53,577 nt of DNA from a virus. Its lineage: Duplodnaviria > Heunggongvirae > Uroviricota > Caudoviricetes. The stretch lies in IMG/VR virus record IMGVR_UViG_2541047877_000006; one strand, written 5' to 3'. Positions within the stretch are counted from its first letter, which is position 1. Each line of letters begins with the position of its first letter. The position numbers and the translations under genes were made by a program. The notes beneath the pieces are model-generated. The model saw nothing but the letters and a program-made list of their open reading frames with translations. It did not search any database and was not told the origin of the DNA. This document shows, piece after piece, positions 5,265 to 20,479 of this stretch.

Positions 5265-6197
5265 TCATTGGCAGCAAACAATCTCTTTATATGCTTCTTC
5301 TACCATGTCGAATACTTCCGGCCTGTAATAAAAAAATTCATTGCTACCATCAAATTTTACAGTAAAGTTAATTTTATAATTGCTGAAATATTTATGCATC
5401 GTGCTTTCTAATTCTTGAACTTTTCCTGTTGGTCCTTCCCACGTCTTCACGATATGCAAATCATGGATTCTAACACCTGCTTTATGCGCGCTATTTAATA
5501 CCATATTTCTTCGCCTGTTCTCACTAACGCTCACGCCAATTTTCATCATCGTTGGCACTTCCAGATCATCAACCATGATGTAAATTTTTCCATACTCATG
5601 ACTAAGGAAACCGCTTTTCGCGCATTTCGGGCAGCCTTGCCCCTTTTTAAGGTTACTGGGTATAGCAGACCACTCATGACCGCAGACATTACAGCGGCAT
5701 AATACTTTTGTTGCGTTATTAACAATTTCGCCTATAACTTCAACATCAGGATTAACCTTCGCAATAGTCGCGATCTGTTCTTCGTGTGTTAAGGTTCTGA
5801 TTTGTGCTAGTTTTAAAGATTTACACTTCGGGCAGCCGTACCCACTTTTAAGGTTGTAAGGACTAACAGACCACTCATGATCACAAACTTTGCAGCGGCA
5901 CGGGACTTTATCCCTGGCGTTATTAACTTCCCCCAATACTTCAATATTTGGGTTAACTTTGGCTATATCTGCAATATGTTCTTCGTGTGTTAATGTTTTT
6001 TTTAACCTTGCGCATTTAGGGCAACCGTTCCCGTGTTTAAGGTTGTTAGGAGTAGCAGACCACTCATGATCACAAACTTTGCAGCGGCATGATACTTTTG
6101 TTGTGCTGCAGGTTACTTCCTCCAACACTTCAATATTTGGGTTAACTTTCTCAATAGCTGCAATTTGCTCTTCATGCGTTAACTTGCGTCTACCCAT
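5265..6197 (-). CDS. triple zinc-ribbon repeat protein with C-terminal T5orf172 (GIY-YIG-like) domain
   Basis: Three ~45-aa repeats LTHEE.IA.I.KVNP.IEV...CRCKVC.HEWS...GCPKC; C-terminal KIYIMV...KIGVS...ENRRR. Confidence 0.6.
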   Translation of the reverse strand: MGRRKLTHEEQIAAIEKVNPNIEVLEEVTCSTTKVSCRCKVCDHEWSATPNNLKHGNGCPKCARLKKTLTHEEHIADIAKVNPNIEVLGEVNNARDKVPCRCKVCDHEWSVSPYNLKSGYGCPKCKSLKLAQIRTLTHEEQIATIAKVNPDVEVIGEIVNNATKVLCRCNVCGHEWSAIPSNLKKGQGCPKCAKSGFLSHEYGKIYIMVDDLEVPTMMKIGVSVSENRRRNMVLNSAHKAGVRIHDLHIVKTWEGPTGKVQELESTMHKYFSNYKINFTVKFDGSNEFFYYRPEVFDMVEEAYKEIVCCQ

Positions 6198-6583: not shown

Positions 6584-7630
6584 TCAAAGAGCGCCTGCGC
6601 GTGTGTCGCGTAGCGTTTTTGGTTTAAGCAGGAAATCAAGTGTCGCTGTGAAGCCATTGCCGAAGTAAAAATCTGAAGCCGTGTTTTTGAATGTTTCGAA
6701 GTAGGCGACAAAGCCGTTAATGCTTTTGTCTTTCAGGTAGTCAGTGAACGCATAGATCTTGCGTTCAAGATCCCGATCCAGTTCGGCAGGTGGTAACAGG
6801 CCGTCAAACGTGCTGTTAAATGCTTCCACCACGTCGGCAGCGTTTACAGTAGCTGATAGCTTGCGCCATTGCTCAGCGTCAGCCAGATACCCATCGAATT
6901 TAGTTACCCGGCAAATGTTGATAGGCTTAGGTGTTCCACCACGGCTGCGCCATTGCGTCAAAGCCCATTCGATTACTAATGTGATCTCATCCTCCGTGTA
7001 TGCCTTACGTGTTTTTGTTTCTGTCAGTAGTTCGATAAATGGCTTAGCATCACGACTCTTGCATCCAGCTTTGTCGTTGTAGAAGGCCAAGCAACGCAAT
7101 GCCGCTTCGTTTACGCCATCCTGATTGACCGTTTTTTGTCCATTTTCGCTAATACACGAAGTGTATATATCTTTTTCTCTTTCTTCTTCTACTTCTAATT
7201 CATGACCCTTTCCTGACCCGGTCATGACCCTATCATGACCTTTTGGTGTTGGATTGATTAACTTCTCTAATTTTAATTGCTCCTTCGCTGTGTTTATAGC
7301 AGCCCTATAAGCGCTCTTAGAAGTCATTGATTGGTCCAGCCTTTTTAATAACTTTAGGCAAGTTATGTGGCCTTGAGAACATTCGAACAAACCAATTTCG
7401 ATGAAGTATTTCATCATTTCTTCTATACGTTTTTCAGTAGATCCGACGTTTCGCGCAATGATTCTCGCGTCATGTCGTAGGTCAAAATTCAGATTGTGCT
7501 GATCTACGTCATAAGTTATTAGTTCGAGGCAATACCAATAAAGCCCGTACCCTTCCAGGCCATAATCTAACAAAACGTTTTGAAGTTTTTCATCGCGGTT
7601 CGCATCGCTGTCATGCTTAAACCACTTCAT
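6584..7630 (-). CDS. phage replisome organizer / replication initiation protein
   Basis: 348 aa; N-terminal MKWFKHDSDANRDEKL...GLEGYGLYWYCLE motif; same operon as helicase. Confidence 0.7.
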   Translation of the reverse strand: MKWFKHDSDANRDEKLQNVLLDYGLEGYGLYWYCLELITYDVDQHNLNFDLRHDARIIARNVGSTEKRIEEMMKYFIEIGLFECSQGHITCLKLLKRLDQSMTSKSAYRAAINTAKEQLKLEKLINPTPKGHDRVMTGSGKGHELEVEEEREKDIYTSCISENGQKTVNQDGVNEAALRCLAFYNDKAGCKSRDAKPFIELLTETKTRKAYTEDEITLVIEWALTQWRSRGGTPKPINICRVTKFDGYLADAEQWRKLSATVNAADVVEAFNSTFDGLLPPAELDRDLERKIYAFTDYLKDKSINGFVAYFETFKNTASDFYFGNGFTATLDFLLKPKTLRDTRAGAL

Positions 7631-7633
7631 AGA

Positions 7634-7891
7634 TCATCCCTCCGGCAACATCACTACATAGACATCACTGAATGCATCAAGACGACAAACAAATCCTTTA
7701 TCCATTAACGCGGCGAAGGCATCATGTACCGTATGAACAGGAAGTTCACACATTGCGGCTACTTCTTTGCGTGATGCATCATGTACCCGTCCTTTGTTAT
7801 CTGCCTTTTCAGCCAGAGCCATTAAGACAAGTTTTTGAATCGGGCTATTAAGTTTTACGTTCCATGCTTTACTAATCATGTTCATACTCAT
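7634..7891 (-). CDS. winged-helix/HTH DNA-binding protein in Cro position
   Basis: 85 aa from ATG 7891 (AGGAG SD); first gene of leftward operon, divergent from cI. Confidence 0.4.
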   Translation of the reverse strand: MSMNMISKAWNVKLNSPIQKLVLMALAEKADNKGRVHDASRKEVAAMCELPVHTVHDAFAALMDKGFVCRLDAFSDVYVVMLPEG

Positions 7892-8105
7892 CGCATTTTC
7901 TCCTATGGTTAGAGTGAACGCGCGGGCGGGCATCCCATTAGCATTAGATAGCAGTGACTGACCGCTCAACAGATCCCGCCGTTGCGTGATATTTGTTTTT
8001 CGCTTCGCAGCGACACCGGATTTTTAAAGAGCATAAGGTAAGTGCCTTTTTGTGCCTTCAGTTATCTTTTTCCTTGCGTCTTTGCAAGTATGGCCTTACC
8101 TTGTC

Positions 8106-8163
8106 TGCAAGTTTACAAAATGGAATTTTAAGATCAAGGCTTAAAATACACGTTTTGTGACTT
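8106..8163. promoter_or_regulatory. nested imperfect palindrome in cI upstream region (operator-like)
   Basis: TGCAAGTTTACAAAA...TTTTAAG atcaagg CTTAAAA...TTTTGTGACTTGCA; arms match 14/15. Confidence 0.4.
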
Positions 8164-8196
8164 GCATCAAACTTTTTGAGGTTATAGGGTAGCGAC

Positions 8197-8844
8197 ATGA
8201 AAACAAAATGGTATGACTTAGCAAAGCAGCTCATGCGGGCGCAGGGCATGAGCCAGGATTCACTCGCGGATCGTATGGGGATAACTAAAGGCGGCCTGTC
8301 ACACTGGCTGAACGGTCGCCGAGAGCCAAATCTTGAAGATATTGCGCGGATTATGCGCGAGCTTGGTCGTCGGCAGTTTACTGTTACACATGATGGCATG
8401 GTCATTGATGATTCTGTTTCTAATACACTTCAGGCCGTGCCGCCGCGTGATTTAGGTAGTTACCCGGTTATTGACTGGAAGGACACAGTAAACAATATGG
8501 ATGACGCAAGGCGTTCAGCATTACGACACGTTACGACTAGCGTTATTTGTTCAGATGACAGTTACTGGCTGGTTGCCAAAGGTGAATCAATGAACGCGCC
8601 GCAGGGGTTGAGCATCCCGGCGGGGACGATGATACTTGTGGACCCGCACGCGCCAGCTATTGACGGCAAACTGGTTATAGCCCAGCTTGAGGAAGGGCAG
8701 ATACCGACGTTTAAACAGTTGATTATTGATGGAGGTCAAAGGCTTTTACGTTCGCTCAATCCGCTGTATCCGCCAATCCCTATGAATCCAGAATCAAAAA
8801 TTATAGGCGTGGTGGTTGATGCGAAGATCGTAAACCTGCCATAA
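8197..8844 (+). CDS. cI: CI-like repressor (HTH-XRE plus S24 LexA-like peptidase)
   Basis: 215 aa; N-terminal HTH (MSQDSLADRMGITKGGLSHWLNGRREP); C-terminal GESM serine and lysine of S24 autopeptidases. Confidence 0.8.
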   Translation: MKTKWYDLAKQLMRAQGMSQDSLADRMGITKGGLSHWLNGRREPNLEDIARIMRELGRRQFTVTHDGMVIDDSVSNTLQAVPPRDLGSYPVIDWKDTVNNMDDARRSALRHVTTSVICSDDSYWLVAKGESMNAPQGLSIPAGTMILVDPHAPAIDGKLVIAQLEEGQIPTFKQLIIDGGQRLLRSLNPLYPPIPMNPESKIIGVVVDAKIVNLP

Positions 8845-8849
8845 ACATT

Positions 8850-8875
8850 AGCCGCCGAATGGCGGCTTTTCTTTG
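8850..8875 (+). terminator. rho-independent terminator after cI
   Basis: AGCCGCC gaat GGCGGCT hairpin followed by TTTCTTTG. Confidence 0.6.
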
Positions 8876-8956
8876 CCTGGGAAACACCAAAACGTAAACA
8901 GAAAACGTTATTTATTATTTAAATATCAATGGCATATAAAATATTTTAAAAAAGTA

Positions 8957-8996
8957 TACAAAATGGATTGACTCGATGTTTTACGGGGCGTATATT
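8957..8996 (+). promoter_or_regulatory. pL-like sigma70 promoter with upstream TACAAAATGG element
   Basis: -35 TTGACT (8968-8973), 17-nt spacer, -10 TATATT (8991-8996); TTGACTCG/CGAGTCAA inverted repeat brackets it. Confidence 0.55.
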
Positions 8997-9250
8997 GCGA
9001 GTCAAAGGAAGGGCGCAGGTAACAAAAGCAACTTCCTGGCACTTTAAAAATCAGGCTTAACACCTTGTCAACCGTGGAGTAACTCCCCGATGGGGGACCG
9101 AAAGCGGCACTGATAACAAGGCGCATGGGGTGTTTAAAGCGTTACATCCCCCACGAAACCGCACGCAAGGCGACGAGTCAGCTTGCTTGGAGTGAGCAAG
9201 GTCACGCCGGGAACGGCGATGATTGCGGGATTAGTTGAAAGATGTTAAGC

Positions 9251-9288
9251 CGCTCATTAACAATCTGGTCAGCCGCTGGAAGTGCGGC
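9251..9288 (+). promoter_or_regulatory. nutL-like site (boxA plus boxB hairpin)
   Basis: boxA CGCTCATTAACAA (cf. CGCTCTTTAACAA), 8-nt gap, boxB GCCGC-tggaagt-GCGGC stem-loop. Confidence 0.5.
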
Positions 9289-9344
9289 AATTAACGAAGA
9301 TGATTTTTTATTAAGTATCATCAAGGATATACGGAGATCAGATT

Positions 9345-9635
9345 ATGAGCGTTACAATTATATATGGTAAATGTGATAGCAAAATGAATGCCAGGGAACG
9401 CAGAAGGATAAAAAGAGAAAACGAAAGAAAATCATCACCTGCAATCAATAAAACAGACAATGTGGATAAAGCTATTCGATTTGCAAACGAGGAAAGATGC
9501 AAACCAAATAGCATTAAAGAACGTCGCAAAGGATCAGTAAAATGGTATACGGAAAATGAAAGCGGCAGCTACTACCACGCAACGCAACCACGCCATTTAG
9601 GGGAAAAACCCCTGGATAAAGTCCGCTACCATTAA
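9345..9635 (+). CDS. N-like antitermination protein
   Basis: Arginine-rich motif MNARERRRIKRENERK (from ATG 9384) like lambdoid N; directly downstream of nutL-like site. Confidence 0.5.
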   Translation: MSVTIIYGKCDSKMNARERRRIKRENERKSSPAINKTDNVDKAIRFANEERCKPNSIKERRKGSVKWYTENESGSYYHATQPRHLGEKPLDKVRYH

Positions 9636-9665
9636 TACAAAATGTAAACATCCGGAGATGACATT

Positions 9666-9788
9666 ATGGTTATTCAGGCGCTTCAATTCAAACTGGCAGT
9701 AGCGGAAATGCTTCACGATGCCGAAATGTGGAGCGCCGCGAATAAAGCCTTATACATAGTGTTAACAGCACGGGAGATTAAATGGTGA
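9666..9788 (+). CDS. small hypothetical protein (40 aa)
   Basis: GGAG SD; stop overlaps erf start (ATGGTGA). Confidence 0.25.
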   Translation: MVIQALQFKLAVAEMLHDAEMWSAANKALYIVLTAREIKW

Positions 9789-10426
9789 AAACAGAGTTAC
9801 ATAAAAAGCTATGGACGATTCAGCAAACGCTGAACGCGCCGAAAAATCAGCGTAATAATTTTGGTGGATATAATTACAGGTCGGCGGAGGATATTTTAGA
9901 GGCGGTTAAACCACTGCTTCAAAGTATTACGCTGACTGTAAGCGATGAAATTGTCCTGATCGGCAATCGCTATTATGTGAAAGCTACGGCGACGCTAAGC
10001 GACGGTGAAGACGAAATAGCGGTAACGGCTTACGCCAGGGAAGAAGAAAGCAAGAAGGGAATGGACGCAAGCCAGCTAACAGGTGCGACATCAAGTTACG
10101 CGCGAAAATATGCTTTGAACGGTTTATTCTGCATTGATGATGCGCGAGATCCTGATACTGACGCATACGCTAAGCAGACAGGCCAGCAGCCTCGCCAGCA
10201 GAAAAACCCACCAAAACAACAACCACAGCAGCAGAAAGCGCCGCCAAATCCTGATGAAGTATTAGCACGTTTCTGTGATGCAGCAGCGAAAGCGCAGGAC
10301 GCTAACAAGCTGCGTGAAATATTTGGCAAATGCTGGAAATTACTACCGGAAGGATCGGAACATCGAATCAAGGCAAAAGATGTTTATGACATCCGGGTAG
10401 CAGAGCTTAACGGGGAGATGGGTTAA
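9782..10426 (+). CDS. erf: Erf-family ssDNA-annealing recombinase
   Basis: 214 aa; ERF-like N-terminal core; Q/P-rich linker; adjacent to ssb. Confidence 0.8.
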   Translation: MVKTELHKKLWTIQQTLNAPKNQRNNFGGYNYRSAEDILEAVKPLLQSITLTVSDEIVLIGNRYYVKATATLSDGEDEIAVTAYAREEESKKGMDASQLTGATSSYARKYALNGLFCIDDARDPDTDAYAKQTGQQPRQQKNPPKQQPQQQKAPPNPDEVLARFCDAAAKAQDANKLREIFGKCWKLLPEGSEHRIKAKDVYDIRVAELNGEMG

Positions 10427-10830
10427 TGAGTTTAAATTCAATCACGCTGGGCGGGAATATCGGTAATGATATGGAGGTTCGCTACACACAAAACGGGAAA
10501 GCGATTGGTAGTTTTCCGTTAGCTGTAACGAATGGCTACGGCGATAATAAGCGGACAATGTGGGTCACTTGCCTGGTATTTGGTGAGCGTGCGGAAAAAT
10601 TAGCGCCACATATCCGCAAGGGTGGAAAAATAGTGGTAAGCGGTCGCCTGGATGTTCGGCAATATGACCGGAACGACGGCACGAAGGGAACGGCGGTAGA
10701 AGTGGCGGTTAACGAATTTGAATTCATGAACGTTAACCAACAAGGCCAGCAGCAGAAAGCGCCTCCGCAGCAGCAGAATAATAACGGGAATAATCCGCCG
10801 ATGGACTTTGATGACGATATCCCGTTTTGA
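10426..10830 (+). CDS. ssb: single-stranded DNA-binding protein
   Basis: OB-fold SSB pattern; Gln-rich linker; acidic C-terminal tail DFDDDIPF. Confidence 0.85.
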   Translation: MSLNSITLGGNIGNDMEVRYTQNGKAIGSFPLAVTNGYGDNKRTMWVTCLVFGERAEKLAPHIRKGGKIVVSGRLDVRQYDRNDGTKGTAVEVAVNEFEFMNVNQQGQQQKAPPQQQNNNGNNPPMDFDDDIPF

Positions 10831-11361: not shown

Positions 11362-11471
11362 GCTTTGCAAAAATTGCCGCATTGCTTGCGGCTTTATCTA
11401 TCGCCGTGCTGTATCTCAGTGTATCTCTTTATATCACGGTAGCGATCATTAAACTCATTACTAACATGTGA
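11358..11471 (+). CDS. small membrane peptide (37 aa)
   Basis: MSFAKIAALLAALSIAVLYLSVSLYITVAIIKLITNM; GGAGG SD; ATGA overlap with upstream stop. Confidence 0.4.
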   Translation: MSFAKIAALLAALSIAVLYLSVSLYITVAIIKLITNM

Positions 11472-13618: not shown

Positions 13619-13811
13619 ACATTACATGGAATGGAAAATTCCAGAAGCAGCAACAAAGGCAGCGCCAGGAAATGTTTCTGGCGTTTATTTTTATATGGAT
13701 GGCAAATGGTATTTCGGCAGCAGGCCGGATCGCTACTATCAAGAAATATGCAAGCCTCACGTATGGGATATTAAAGAGCGCGTGAAAGGCGGGGTAATTG
13801 AGGACGTTTAA
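13608..13811 (+). CDS. hypothetical protein (67 aa)
   Basis: ORF overlapping upstream gene end. Confidence 0.4.
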   Translation: MKFKHYMEWKIPEAATKAAPGNVSGVYFYMDGKWYFGSRPDRYYQEICKPHVWDIKERVKGGVIEDV

Positions 13812-15621: not shown

Positions 15622-16382
15622 GTGGGCTTAGAAATTGGGTGGTGTGGTCGCTGTACGACGGCAGCGGATACGCCGTTAAAGATTGGGCCGACGCTGGTTA
15701 TAAATGCTATTGCTTCAACTATGATGGCGCTAATCACGGCGATTATGAAGGCGTCAAAATCATTCATCCGAACATTGAGTATATCAACGTATGGATTGAC
15801 AGCCATTTCCTGGTAATGTTCTCCCCTGAATTGTCTGTTTATCCAGATCCTGACATTATCCTGGGCTTTCCTCCGTGCGACGATCTTGCGGTGTCCGGCG
15901 CTCGCTGGTTTGCTGATAAGCGGAAAAAAGATCCTTACTTCCAGCAGAAGGCGGCATACAACGCAAAACTGGTAGAAACGCTTGCTGATATGTACCACGT
16001 CCCGTGGATGGTGGAAAATCCGGTAGGTGCGCTGTCAACGTTATGGCGCAAACCTGATTTTATCTTCAACCCGTGCGCTTACGGTGGCTACCTGCCTGAA
16101 GACGACAAACACCCTGCTTTCCCTGAATACATAGCTGCCCGCGACGCATACACGAAGAAAACTTGTATCTGGTGCGGGAATGGATTTAAGCAGCCGCTAT
16201 TCCGGTCTGTACCTATGCCGGATGAATGGGAAGACAGCAAACAGCACGCGAAGTTAGGAGGAAAGTCGAAACGCACTAAGATGATCCGCTCACTAACGCC
16301 GCGCGGCTTTGCCCGTGCTGTATTCTTGGCTAACGACCGGGCCATCACTCGTACTACGCTTAACCGCATTTTACCGGACTAA
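15618..16382 (+). CDS. compact DNA cytosine-5 methyltransferase-like protein
   Basis: Motif-I-like LYDGSGY, motif-IV-like GFPPCDD (Cys nucleophile), motif-VI ENPVG; only 254 aa, atypical PCDD. Confidence 0.45.
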   Translation: MSGLRNWVVWSLYDGSGYAVKDWADAGYKCYCFNYDGANHGDYEGVKIIHPNIEYINVWIDSHFLVMFSPELSVYPDPDIILGFPPCDDLAVSGARWFADKRKKDPYFQQKAAYNAKLVETLADMYHVPWMVENPVGALSTLWRKPDFIFNPCAYGGYLPEDDKHPAFPEYIAARDAYTKKTCIWCGNGFKQPLFRSVPMPDEWEDSKQHAKLGGKSKRTKMIRSLTPRGFARAVFLANDRAITRTTLNRILPD

Positions 16383-16404
16383 AGTTTACAAAATGGCATC
16401 ATTG

Positions 16405-16420
16405 TGTGATGCGGATCACA
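16405..16420. promoter_or_regulatory. CRP-box-like palindrome
   Basis: TGTGATGCGGATCACA matches TGTGA-N6-TCACA; flanked by inverted TACAAAATGG copies. Confidence 0.4.
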
Positions 16421-16541
16421 TAATGGCGCTTTTTGTCTTGTTTGGGGGTATCCATTTTGTATACTTCAAGCAAACAAAATGCTCTTTAAAAATCCGGCAG
16501 CGCTGAAATGCGTAGAAATCACCTGAAAAGGAGAGAGCATT

Positions 16542-17738: not shown

Positions 17739-17921
17739 ATGAAAAACGAAATTAAAGATCTGCAAATAGATATTCAGCGCGACGAGCATGATTTGGAAAC
17801 TGTACGACAAATACAGGTTTTCCACATGCGAGAATTGCTTGCGCTTAAAGAGCTTGAAAGAAAGCTAGTGCAATCAATATCTGATCGCAAAAGACTGGTT
17901 GCACGTTACGGGGGTAAATAA
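17739..17921 (+). CDS. hypothetical coiled-coil protein (60 aa)
   Basis: ORF from ATG 17739; no domain recognised. Confidence 0.4.
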   Translation: MKNEIKDLQIDIQRDEHDLETVRQIQVFHMRELLALKELERKLVQSISDRKRLVARYGGK

Positions 17922-18643
17922 TGAATCTGGAATCTATTCTTAAATTCCACCTCCCAAAATCACCGCGTTTGTCAGATGAAAGCCGGGGCACGTCCCCAGA
18001 CTCGCTTAATACTACTGATGCACTAACCGCAGCAGGTATGGCGCAATCGCGCGTAGAGCTTGGTTATAGCGCTTTTTTAGGGAAGATGGAACTATCACAA
18101 GCCGAAAAACATAGGGCCGTAGTTTTGCTTACAGAGCGTTTAAGGGCTATGGCGAAAGATTACGAATACGTGATGGAGTTAAACGAGGATCAGCGCAATG
18201 GACTTATTATTCTTGTTGCCGTTTTCGCGTTTCGGGATTATTGCCAGAGTGCGGCGACCGAAAAAGTTTGCCCTAAGTGCGGCGGATATAAATTTACGTT
18301 TGACGACTACGGAGAAAAACACCTTTGCAAAAAATGCAAGGGGCATGGAAAAGTTCGCAATCATTGTAAACGATGCAAAGGGCGCGGCGAGATACCGGAT
18401 AAAGCAGCCAGTGAAGCAGCGGAAATGCCAGTGTTCAAAACGTGCCAGCATTGCGGCGGGCGCGGGTACTCGCGTTTCCCTGTAGATCTTGTCCGGCGTG
18501 CGGTTAATCAGCTTGTATTTCCGGTAAGCCGATCAACATGGTGGAAAAAATACCGGGTTTTCTATGAAGACGCCATTGCTGAATTGTTCAAGGAAGAGGC
18601 GCGGGCTGATAACGAAATTAAACGAGTTACGCGGGGTGAATGA
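17921..18643 (+). CDS. Q-like late antiterminator candidate with DnaJ-type zinc finger
   Basis: 240 aa; four CxxCxGxG repeats (CPKCGG, CKKCKGHG, CKRCKGRG, CQHCGGRG); follows ninG-rusA as Q does in lambdoids. Confidence 0.4.
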   Translation: MNLESILKFHLPKSPRLSDESRGTSPDSLNTTDALTAAGMAQSRVELGYSAFLGKMELSQAEKHRAVVLLTERLRAMAKDYEYVMELNEDQRNGLIILVAVFAFRDYCQSAATEKVCPKCGGYKFTFDDYGEKHLCKKCKGHGKVRNHCKRCKGRGEIPDKAASEAAEMPVFKTCQHCGGRGYSRFPVDLVRRAVNQLVFPVSRSTWWKKYRVFYEDAIAELFKEEARADNEIKRVTRGE

Positions 18644-20245: not shown

Positions 20246-20479
20246 ATGTGTATCTATGAACACAAGCGGGATAAAACCCGCTTTTTTGTTCGTGCTGGCG
20301 TGGCTTACCAGTATCACGACTGCGGATATATCGAGGCGCTTGCTTACGATCTGGACTTCGAACAAGAAAAAGAATGGTTCGATTTCAAAATTTACCGGAA
20401 GCGTAAACCGACGCGCGACGAGCGACACGCTATCCGGGACTTTTTAATCAGCATAGACCGCTGGGAGACAGAGGAATGA
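20246..20479 (+). CDS. hypothetical protein (77 aa)
   Basis: ORF from ATG 20246 with GGGG SD. Confidence 0.4.
   Translation: MCIYEHKRDKTRFFVRAGVAYQYHDCGYIEALAYDLDFEQEKEWFDFKIYRKRKPTRDERHAIRDFLISIDRWETEE

Follow-up and report, generated by a model that had tools for sequence, protein, structure and literature searches.

The closest described relative of the antitermination unit treated here is that of phage mEp021. Gp17 of this phage is an experimentally characterised early antiterminator of the lambda N kind which, according to PMC11893012 (with reference to Valencia-Toxqui et al. 2023, Arch Virol 168:92), acts via three sites: nutR1, which lies upstream of gp17, nutR2 and nutL. The mEpimmI group of phages was isolated as Nus-dependent, and the residues R17, R19, R20 and R24 of Gp17 are described as conserved (PMC11893012). 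In human faecal samples, phages of the mEpimmI group reportedly equal lambdoid phages in prevalence.

The window, i.e. the whole analysed stretch of 53,577 nt, very probably represents a temperate coliphage of this mEpimmI (mEp021-like) group, and the locus studied its early rightward control unit, with processive antitermination of the lambda N type. The region is 88-92% identical to the phages mEp010, mEp515, mEp021, mEp044, mEp554 and mEp013; to phage MagusPhagus the identity is 98%. The unit which an earlier note had proposed for this DNA is therefore already published in a close relative. The proposal was correct as a rediscovery, so that its value is one of confirmation, and the promoter, nutR1, nutL, nutR2, gp17 and the Q gene can be annotated with confidence. 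No substantive difference to the mEp021 system was found, and the window is a further member of the group. The sequence elements and their pattern of conservation, the covariation of boxB, the orthology of Gp17 and the gene layout are established in this analysis (Table 1); judged from the ortholog, the unit should show the same antitermination behaviour as that of mEp021.

Table 1. Features of the early control region and of the two early arms in the window.
Feature	Position	Strand	Details
nutL	8000..8033	-	boxA TGCTCTTTAAAAA 8033-8021, 7-nt gap, boxB UCGCU-GCGA-AGCGA 8013-8000
CI-like repressor gene	8197-8844		upstream of the terminator 8850-8877
Intrinsic terminator after the repressor gene (mEp021 TERM_1/t1)	8850..8877	+	hairpin 8850-8867, then T-run
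13-mer GTATACAAAATGG, copy abutting the -35 box	8954..8966	+	invariant in all relatives; candidate regulator/operator site
Early rightward sigma-70 promoter TTGACT-17-TATATT	8968..8996	+	-35 8968-8973, -10 8991-8996
8-bp inverted repeat	8968-8975 and 8999-9006	.	left arm TTGACTCG, right arm CGAGTCAA; arms not co-conserved
Predicted hairpin GGAAGG...CUUCC at the 5' end of the leader	9006..9037	+	in long-leader forms; arms retained across long-leader variants
Upstream boxA-like copy, boxA' (GCACTTTAAAAATCA)	9039..9053	+	11/12 positions of the window's own nutL/nutR2 boxA
Optional structured leader module, 198 nt	9054..9251	+	closed by a 17-pair terminal helix, ~9055-9073 with 9235-9251
37-codon ORF (gp16 in the mEp021 annotation)	9125..9238	+	probably not coding
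nutR1 boxA CGCTCATTAACAA	9251..9263	+	sequence comparison; 8-nt gap to boxB
nutR1 boxB GCCGC-UGGAAGU-GCGGC	9272..9288	+	hairpin; covariation across 10 distinct hairpins
gp17 ortholog, N-like antiterminator, 96 aa	9345..9635	+	PHROG 271; 93% identity to mEp021 Gp17
Kil-like 40-aa ORF, next gene of the operon	9666..9788	+	profile matches
Terminator-like hairpin in the rightward operon (position of mEp021 TERM_2/t2)	11376..11392	+	predicted; presumed read-through target
Terminator-like hairpin (position of mEp021 TERM_3)	13661..13685	+	predicted
nutR2	16480..16513	+	boxA TGCTCTTTAAAAA 16480-16492, 7-nt gap, boxB GCGC-UGAAAU-GCGU 16500-16513
Q-type late antiterminator gene, distal end of the rightward arm	17921..18643	+	PF03589, E = 2e-29

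The antiterminator Gp17

The ORF behind the leader is preceded by GGAG at 9333-9336, and its product is 93% identical to mEp021 Gp17 over 96 aa. The earlier note had pointed to an arginine-rich motif like that of lambdoid N proteins. This motif (MNARERRRIKRENERK) comprises residues 14-28, contains R17, R19, R20, R21 and R24, is identical to that of mEp021 and belongs to a protein orthologous to a known antiterminator. The ORF matches PHROG 271 ('anti-termination protein N-like') with E = 1.3e-13; the Pfam profile N_peptide (PF25694) is hit with E = 0.019 and 15.9 bits, which is below the cut-off of 27.9 bits.

The motif of Gp17 aligns with lambda MDAQTRRRERRAEKQ at the motif level only, and BLASTP revealed no pairwise similarity to lambda N beyond it (E = 16-26). 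A PDB sequence search with Gp17 returned spurious matches only, and no distant relatives could be identified in the scan of genome contigs. The protein search yielded only 31 clusters, each at least 60% identical, and the family is thus too narrow for a distant comparison. By extension from the mEp021 group, Gp17-dependent read-through of terminators as well as Nus dependence are predicted for the window.

Terminator and promoter

The terminator that had been proposed behind the cI gene is indeed found there as a hairpin with a T-run, and in the relatives its stem is invariant while its loop varies. The strong promoter (TTGACT, 17 nt, TATATT) is likewise present as described. With 10 of 12 consensus positions matched, it is the best candidate within 7500-10500, a score to be read against the background that consensus matches by themselves are not above chance (7 found vs 5.5 expected). 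Among 38 distinct sequences of relatives TTGAC is invariant and GTATAtT nearly so, whereas the spacer is variable, as one would expect if the promoter is real. Transcription would start near 9003.

The promoter was also said to be bracketed by an 8-bp inverted repeat. The repeat exists, but its arms do not co-vary in the relatives (TTGACTCT/CGAATCAA, TTGACACC/CGTATCAA, TTGACATG/CAAATCAA); it is therefore not a conserved dyad, was rejected as an operator and is probably incidental.

The nut sites

Three units of boxA and boxB are located at the heads of early transcription units and are co-oriented with them, at the positions described for mEp021 (PMC11893012). The one proposed earlier, consisting of a boxA, a gap of 8 nt and a boxB stem-loop, lies exactly where it had been placed, and its boxB pairing is kept in the relatives. 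It is the only boxA+boxB upstream of gp17 in all relatives, those with a short leader (see below) included, and so it probably corresponds to the published nutR1, an assignment made by position and by presence in all relatives.

Ten distinct boxB hairpins, taken from the relatives and from the other two nut sites, were compared. The pairs were counted by script, because MAFFT, applied to all nut sites together, misaligned the stems. Pairing is kept through changes on both sides of the stem: C-G is found throughout at pair 1, seven hairpins have G-C and three A-T at pair 2, nine have C-G and one T-A at pair 3, and five pair types occur at pair 4. One variant, present at two loci, carries a single A-C mismatch. 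The loops are of the types U-GAAA-U/A, U-GGAAG-U or U-GCGA-A, and the nutR1 loop of the window (UGGAAGU) is unlike the GAAA loop of nutR2 and of the divergent relatives. Selection on the boxB hairpin as an RNA structure, with covarying stems around a conserved loop, is well supported, and the published nut sites thereby gain independent support from the comparative data.

Of the checks suggested in the earlier note, the structure prediction gave folding energies of single boxB hairpins that are not informative (z = -0.6 for nutR1, not significant). In a direct comparison, the loops resemble lambda nutL (CGCTCTTAAAAA-TTAA-GCCCUGAAGAAGGGC).

It could be argued that the likeness to boxA and boxB next to an arginine-rich ORF is coincidental, the ORF encoding an unrelated basic protein and the hairpin being an ordinary element of RNA stability or processing. 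The non-significant folding energy would fit such an explanation, as would the missing BLASTP similarity of Gp17 to lambda N and the frequency of boxA-like 13-mers with up to three mismatches, which is that expected by chance in the window (26 found vs 21 expected). Nevertheless, we regard a coincidence as hardly credible, given that the ortholog of the ORF has been characterised by experiment as an antiterminator and that the ORF matches the N-like PHROG profile, that three co-oriented boxA+boxB units head the early transcription units, and that boxB covaries strongly around a conserved loop.

Two forms of the leader

The leader upstream of gp17, for which a length of about 350 nt had been given, measures about 342 nt in the window. 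It occurs in two forms among the relatives. In about 80% of them, the window included, a structured module is inserted between two boxA-like copies, namely boxA' and the proximal boxA of nutR1. The relatives comprise 42 long and 11 short leaders; three further loci (L054, L112, L113) have the short form and L114-L116 the long one. The module is absent from all 14 short-leader relatives examined. The long form is common to the window, mEp021, mEp010 and mEp515, and mEp013, mEp044 and mEp554 naturally have the short one; in PMC11893012, which deals with the mEpimmI group, neither two leader forms nor a structured module are mentioned.

The module folds with -77.4 kcal/mol (z = -3.9), and none of 200 shuffled sequences folds as well. 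Its divergence of 0.021 is about 7-fold less than the 0.15 found at third codon positions of gp17, and boxA' shows zero divergence in 35 distinct long-leader sequences. One helix of the module contains three compensatory pairs, besides which there are G-U/G-C and U-A/U-G switches; the covariation thus concerns one helix in one lineage.

We also looked for further copies and for known RNA families. A distant blastn search against phages found the module in four records only, all of the mEp group. Among E. coli genomes there are 31 single copies, every match covering at least 99% of the 213-nt query, and an 18-mer search of metagenomes gave 11 true copies that are at least 99% identical. The other 35 metagenome matches to 18-mers are chance matches of 18-21 nt, one of which carries an unrelated Pseudomonas sRNA, and an exact 30-mer of the module had no match in the genome-contig collection. 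As no more diverse copies were found, the power of the covariation analysis could not be raised. Rfam 15 gave no match at the gathering threshold for the whole window and none at E <= 10 for 8960-9350, and ARAGORN found no tRNA or tmRNA.

The mEp021 and MagusPhagus annotations contain a small ORF, gp16 (37 aa), within the module, and the conserved segment might accordingly encode a protein instead of a structured RNA. Its frame of 37 codons is kept in 14 distinct sequences with the exception of L049, which has lost the stop codon. The substitutions, however, do not look like those of a coding gene. The divergence at codon positions 1, 2 and 3 is 0.046, 0.015 and 0.032, i.e. the third position is not relaxed, and the 71 nt of the module outside of the ORF are still more conserved (0.006). 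Nine codon variants are non-synonymous and five synonymous; five of the non-synonymous ones are exactly the RNA-compensatory changes, all of which are non-synonymous. Moreover, the ORF lacks a credible ribosome-binding site, neither Pfam nor PHROG gives a match, and the whole segment is missing from the short-leader relatives. A protein-coding role of gp16 is therefore disfavoured and in our opinion very unlikely. A leader encoding a conserved small protein had been named beforehand as an observation that would speak against the antitermination unit; what was found is an ORF with neither codon periodicity nor a profile match.

The low divergence of the module could have another cause than constraint. 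A recent acquisition, spread by homologous recombination via the conserved promoter and nut flanks, would leave few differences, and the fold would then be incidental. In line with this there are only two main alleles, all copies being at least 94% identical (31 E. coli genomes, 4 phage records and 11 metagenome contigs), and the stretch of low divergence begins and ends where the insertion/deletion does. Against this stand the folding far better than that of shuffled sequence, the compensatory changes by which the two alleles differ, the placement of the other variable sites in predicted loops or G-U switches, and the retention of the module in phages whose flanks are down to about 82% identical. 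We consider recombination without constraint rather improbable, yet it is the alternative to be taken most seriously.

We infer that the module serves the leader as an accessory non-coding RNA, either acting in cis or being processed. Beyond that it is possible, and proposed here tentatively, that the module together with the invariant boxA' represents a class of structured leader RNAs in phages that has not been described before, situated within a duplicated boxA. The module might make the assembly of Gp17 and Nus factors at nutR1 conditional (e.g. boxA' lying beside boxB only when the module is folded), serve as an RNase III-type processing switch of gp17 expression, or be released as an accessory ncRNA very early in infection. 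Should it prove functional, N-type antitermination would gain a further layer at the level of RNA.

The duplicated boxA also allows a different assignment of the nut site in long leaders. There, boxA' would be the working NusB/NusE site which the terminal helix of the module brings beside boxB, and the proximal boxA a decaying remnant. The invariance of boxA' is in agreement with this, and the 17-pair closing helix places both copies side by side. Furthermore, the proximal boxA is strictly the canonical GCTCTTTAA(C/T)AA in the short leaders but degenerate and variable in the long ones (CGCTCATTAACAA, CATTCTTTAACAA, TTCTCTTTAACAA, CGCTCATTAAAAA). On the other hand, boxA' has a U-to-A change inside the GCUCUUU core, while the proximal copy retains 11 of 12 consensus positions and its canonical distance of 8 nt to boxB. 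We therefore think it unlikely that boxA' has taken over, and the proximal boxA and boxB are treated as nutR1 in the following.

Operon layout and proposed mechanism

According to Pfam, the rightward arm comprises Gp17, the Kil-like ORF, ERF, SSB, Dam, NinG, RusA and Q, and the leftward arm the replication initiator, DnaB and NinB. The order of repressor, terminator, promoter, leader, gp17, kil-like ORF, erf and ssb is the same as in mEp021, with nutL upstream of the repressor gene and nutR2 downstream of the methyltransferase gene. The layout outlined in the earlier note, with an operon that continues into erf, ssb, the methylases, ninG, rusA and Q and with replication genes and ninB opposite, can thus be maintained. 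In the literature this arm is named 'right' (nutR1/nutR2) and not pL-like.

Directly upstream of nutR2 a conserved promoter-like element and a dyad were observed, with a transcription start predicted near 16472. The stretch 16405-16420 and the GTWTACAAAATGG sites may be bound by CRP or a repressor. The rightward arm may therefore fall into more than one transcription unit, and these elements suggest that the expression of Q may have its own regulated entry point.

From these elements the following course can be proposed. In the absence of the CI-like repressor, host RNA polymerase would initiate at the early rightward promoter and transcribe the leader, from which the nutR1 RNA with boxA and boxB would emerge. 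Translation of the same transcript would yield Gp17, whose arginine-rich motif is expected to bind the boxB loop. With boxA bound by NusB/NusE, a complex including NusA and NusG would remain on the polymerase and render it resistant to terminators, presumably including the two terminator-like hairpins downstream of gp17 (Table 1). Read-through would then allow transcription of the recombination genes, the methylases, NinG/RusA and the Q gene. Gp17 would act in the same manner at two further sites, nutL for the replication operon of the leftward arm and nutR2, which precedes NinG, RusA and Q.

Comparison with other antitermination systems

With lambda the unit shares the first product of the early operon, a protein that is small and basic and contains an arginine-rich motif, and the build of the nut site, in which boxA (GCTCTT(T)AAAAA) is followed after a short spacer by a hairpin of 4-5 bp with a purine-rich G-A-A loop. 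As in lambda, nut lies directly downstream of a repressor-controlled promoter, a Q-type late antiterminator is encoded downstream, and Nus dependence is known from the literature for the mEpimmI group. Pairwise homology between Gp17 and lambda N, on the other hand, was not detectable, and the motif of Gp17 starts at residue 14 and not at the N-terminus. Lambda has two nut sites, the window three, and where lambda has a GAAAA/GAAGA pentaloop, the boxB loops here show GAAA, GGAAG or GCGA closed by U-U or U-A pairs. Unlike in lambda, the operon carrying the N-like gene also carries nin-type genes and Q, whereas the replication genes and ninB are found on the other arm. Finally, a 198-nt structured insert lies upstream of nutR1 in the window.

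The boxA of nutR1 in the short leaders is identical to TGCTCTTTAACAA, the boxA consensus of the E. coli rrn operons. By structural analogy the long leader resembles rrn as well, since a boxA stands directly before a long-range helix closing a structured RNA, like the boxA before the RNase III stem of 16S rRNA. Unlike rrn, a phage N-like protein and boxB would be required here, and the enclosed RNA has 198 nt.

A structured RNA directly downstream of an early phage promoter is also known from HK022, where the put sequence of about 70 nt with two stem-loops replaces N. Between put and the module no Rfam or sequence match was found. In contrast to put, the module is 198 nt long and multi-branched, it coexists with an N-like protein, and it is dispensable in some of the relatives.

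Antitermination unit of the mEp021 type

The earlier note had read the stretch behind the repressor gene as an N-type antitermination unit. The elements were located by reading 8000-10400 together with an ORF listing, and each detail proved accurate, from terminator, promoter and inverted repeat to boxA, gap, boxB and ORF. Six mEp phages (mEp010, 515, 021, 044, 554 and 013) share 88-92% identity with the region and phage MagusPhagus 98%; among 5,426 complete E. coli genomes, 35 contain prophages that match it with up to 99.9% identity. The 96-aa ORF shares 93% identity with gp17 of mEp021, the arginine-rich motif being identical. It contains R17, R19, R20, R21 and R24; R17, R19, R20 and R24 of Gp17 are invariant across 48 genomes (PMC11893012). 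Gp17 was experimentally shown by Valencia-Toxqui et al. 2023 (as given in PMC11893012) to be the N-lambda-like early antitermination protein of mEp021, which belongs to a phage group isolated as Nus-dependent, and it targets three nut sites, of which nutR1 precedes gp17, nutR2 follows the methyltransferase gp32 and nutL lies upstream of the repressor (PMC11893012). Given the orthology and these statements, the earlier note rediscovered a system that had already been published. The N-type reading is supported by the identity to gp17, the covarying boxB and the three nut sites, and the unit was already known.

Features of the early control region, its two operon arms and the recurrent 13-mer
Feature	Position	Strand	Remarks
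CI/LexA-type repressor gene	8197-8844		HTH_3 + Peptidase_S24
Terminator hairpin + T-run	8850-8867
Promoter TTGACT-17-TATATT	8968-8996		10/12 consensus positions; top match of region
8-bp inverted repeat	8968-8975, 8999-9006		TTGACTCG/CGAGTCAA
nutR1 boxA	9251-9263		CGCTCATTAACAA; 8-nt gap to boxB
nutR1 boxB	9272-9288		GCCGC-UGGAAGU-GCGGC
Ribosome-binding site	9333-9336		GGAG
Gp17 ORF, 96 aa	9345-9635		Rightward arm; residues 14-28 MNARERRRIKRENERK
Kil-like ORF	9666		Rightward arm
ERF	9782		Rightward arm
SSB	10426		Rightward arm
Dam	14285		Rightward arm
nutR2	boxA 16480-16492, boxB 16500-16513	plus	Rightward arm; boxB GCGC-UGAAAU-GCGU
NinG	16643		Rightward arm
RusA	17335		Rightward arm
Q antiterminator	17921		Rightward arm
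Lysis + terminase genes			Rightward arm, after Q
nutL	boxA 8033-8021, boxB 8013-8000	minus	boxB UCGCU-GCGA-AGCGA
Replication-initiator-like HTH protein	7969-7634		Leftward arm
Lin1244_N replication protein			Leftward arm
DnaB	3950-2529		Leftward arm
NinB	1516-1085		Leftward arm
Exact 13-mer copies	3967(+), 8111(+), 8954(+), 16384(+), 16452(-), 40978(-)
One-mismatch 13-mer copies	14033, 21698, 37970(+)/37999(-), 40587, 42573, 51452

Gp17 matches PHROG 271 'anti-termination protein N-like' (E = 1.3e-13), and its match to Pfam N_peptide lies below the cut-off. No significant similarity to lambda N was found by BLASTP, and a PDB sequence search gave no match. The family is very small, comprising only 31 clusters (90% identity level) among 5.8 billion sequences, all with 60% or more identity to the query. 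Gp17 works like N and the profile groups it with N-like proteins; a direct homology to lambda N could not be demonstrated.

Nut sites

Besides nutR1, the boxA search revealed two identical 13-mers, TGCTCTTTAAAAA, which belong to nutL and nutR2. The boxA-boxB pair in front of gp17 is the only one there in every relative, short leaders included, and therefore corresponds to the published nutR1, reported in all 48 genomes (PMC11893012). Relatives drawn from IMG/VR, E. coli genomes and the assemblies with the most divergent Gp17 homologs contain ten distinct boxB hairpins. The closing pair is C-G in all ten; pair 2 is G-C in seven and A-T in three, pair 3 is C-G in nine and T-A in one, and pair 4 occurs as five different pair types. 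For nutR1 the stem is GCCGC/GCGGC in the window and GCUAC/GUAGC, UGCAC/GUGCA, GCAC/GUGC and UCGC/GCGA in the relatives' loci L003, L054, L112 and L113, respectively. The loop is U-GAAA-U/A in nutR2 and the divergent nutR1 versions, U-GGAAG-U in the majority of nutR1 and U-GCGA-A in nutL. Single-sequence folding energies were uninformative; the covariation is good evidence for a selected hairpin and argues for the boxB-like stem-loop proposed earlier. The suggested comparison with lambda nutL (J02459), CGCTCTTAAAAA-TTAA-GCCCUGAAGAAGGGC, revealed the same architecture.

A terminator-like hairpin at 11372-11393, GCCGC-AUUGCUU-GCGGC (mEp021 TERM_2), has exactly the 5-bp stem of nutR1 boxB. This may be coincidence, or the hairpin may act as a decoy or competition site for Gp17.

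Operon layout

Pfam confirms the claimed layout, with erf, ssb, methylase, ninG, rusA and Q rightward and the replication genes and ninB leftward. Two terminator-like hairpins on the plus strand, 11376-11392 and 13661-13685, match the positions of TERM_2 and TERM_3 in the mEp021 record. Directly 3' of gp17, the 40-aa ORF 9666-9788 has its own PHROG 34942 (E = 4e-32) and weakly resembles lambda Kil (PHROG 2055 E = 1.4e-3; Pfam E = 2e-4, below cut-off), which adds to the likeness between the beginning of this arm and the lambda pL operon. The E. coli E21845/O/A prophage (L004, 1914-2381) exemplifies mosaic insertions in the rightward operon, with an inserted HNH endonuclease gene that separates the kil-like ORF from erf. 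A strong intrinsic terminator (20264-20283, AAGCGGGATAAAACCCGCTT then TTTTTT), some 1.6 kb beyond the Q gene, is a candidate for Q-dependent read-through in the late operon. The leftward operon also encodes, at 5265-6197 (minus), a 310-aa protein that combines three treble-clef zinc-finger/CapR-type repeats with a C-terminal domain of the T5orf172/MUG113 (GIY-YIG-like) kind; its size differs among relatives, the mEp021 homolog measuring 1,488 nt.

Promoters and a recurrent 13-mer

Among 38 distinct sequences of relatives, TTGAC of the gp17 promoter is invariant, GTATAtT nearly so and the 17-nt spacer variable; the 18 nt 5' of the -35, AAAAAAGTATACAAAATG, are invariant too. The inverted repeat bracketing this promoter is present as the earlier note described it, but its arms vary independently among relatives and it is therefore no conserved dyad.

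An asymmetric 13-mer, GTWTACAAAATGG, occurs 23 times with at most two mismatches in the window (3.8 +/- 2.1 expected; 0 of 100 shuffles reached 23), mostly at gene boundaries. The copy at 8954, unchanged in all relatives, directly adjoins the -35 of the gp17 promoter. The reverse complement of the 13-mer, CCATTTTGTAWACT, includes a -10-like TAWACT, and at about 8-9 of the 13 best sites this putative promoter has the same orientation as the downstream gene. The 13-mer may serve this phage group as a common promoter or regulator element, perhaps an operator.

Directly upstream of nutR2, 16366-16482 has a conserved architecture: the inverted copies 16384(+) and 16452(-) belong to a 31-nt inverted repeat, the arms of a dyad TGTGA-N6-TCACA (16405-16420) are conserved around a freely variable centre in 33 distinct relatives' sequences, and a promoter-like TTGTTT-16-TATACT (16438-16465) lies some 14 nt ahead of boxA. 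Centred near -60, the dyad fits the CRP consensus; a weak terminator hairpin is an equally good reading. In either case transcription may enter the NinG-RusA-Q segment at a regulated point of its own and not only by read-through from the gp17 promoter. The same geometry is seen in a candidate leftward early promoter, TTGATC-16-TAAACT (8110-8137, minus), which overlaps a 13-mer copy about 70 nt upstream of nutL boxA and scores under the consensus-scan threshold.

A structured module in the long leader

The gp17 leader exists in two forms. From 13-mer to boxB the long form measures 365-368 nt (window, mEp021, 42 of 53 aligned loci, plus L114-L116) and the short form 152-153 nt (the other 11, plus L054, L112 and L113); leader alignments show that they differ by a segment of about 213 nt (window ~9039-9252). 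Short leaders have nutR1 at a distance of about 45 nt from the inferred start, as in lambda, and a canonical boxA, GCTCTTTAA(C/T)AA. Long leaders carry an invariant boxA-like copy, boxA' (GCACTTTAAAAATCA, 9039-9053), followed by a 198-nt module (9054-9251), and their proximal boxA is degenerate and variable.

The module is closed on itself by a predicted 17-pair helix and folds with -77.4 kcal/mol (z = -3.9; 0 of 200 shuffles as good). Over 35 distinct long sequences its mean pairwise divergence is 0.021, compared with 0.15 for gp17 third codon positions, 0.06-0.09 for flanking non-coding DNA and 0.000 for boxA'; this low value could reflect recent spread by recombination. One hairpin changes from CUUGCU...AGCAAG to AUCACU...AGUGGU, giving three compensatory pairs, a covariation that represents one event in one lineage. 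The module has only two main alleles. The remaining changes are located in predicted loops or switch between G-U and G-C or between U-A and U-G. That the leader encodes a conserved small protein instead, as the earlier note had considered, is not borne out: gp16, a 37-codon ORF annotated in mEp021 (9125-9238), displays no third-position relaxation, and the compensatory changes are all non-synonymous in it. The part outside gp16 is the most conserved (0.006). Fold, low divergence and compensatory pairs are evidence, with real caveats, that the module may be a structured, constrained non-coding element.

The proposed Rfam scan gave no match for the module even at E <= 10, and there is no mention of it in PMC11893012. 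Each copy found, in 31 E. coli genomes (one each), four phage records and 11 metagenome contigs, sits in the same leader context. As a lead, the module is genuine, if modest. We favour the guess that it would act in cis and modulate nutR1 use or gp17 expression. Folding might bring boxA' next to boxB, or the leader might undergo RNase III-type processing, which is known for the lambda N leader.
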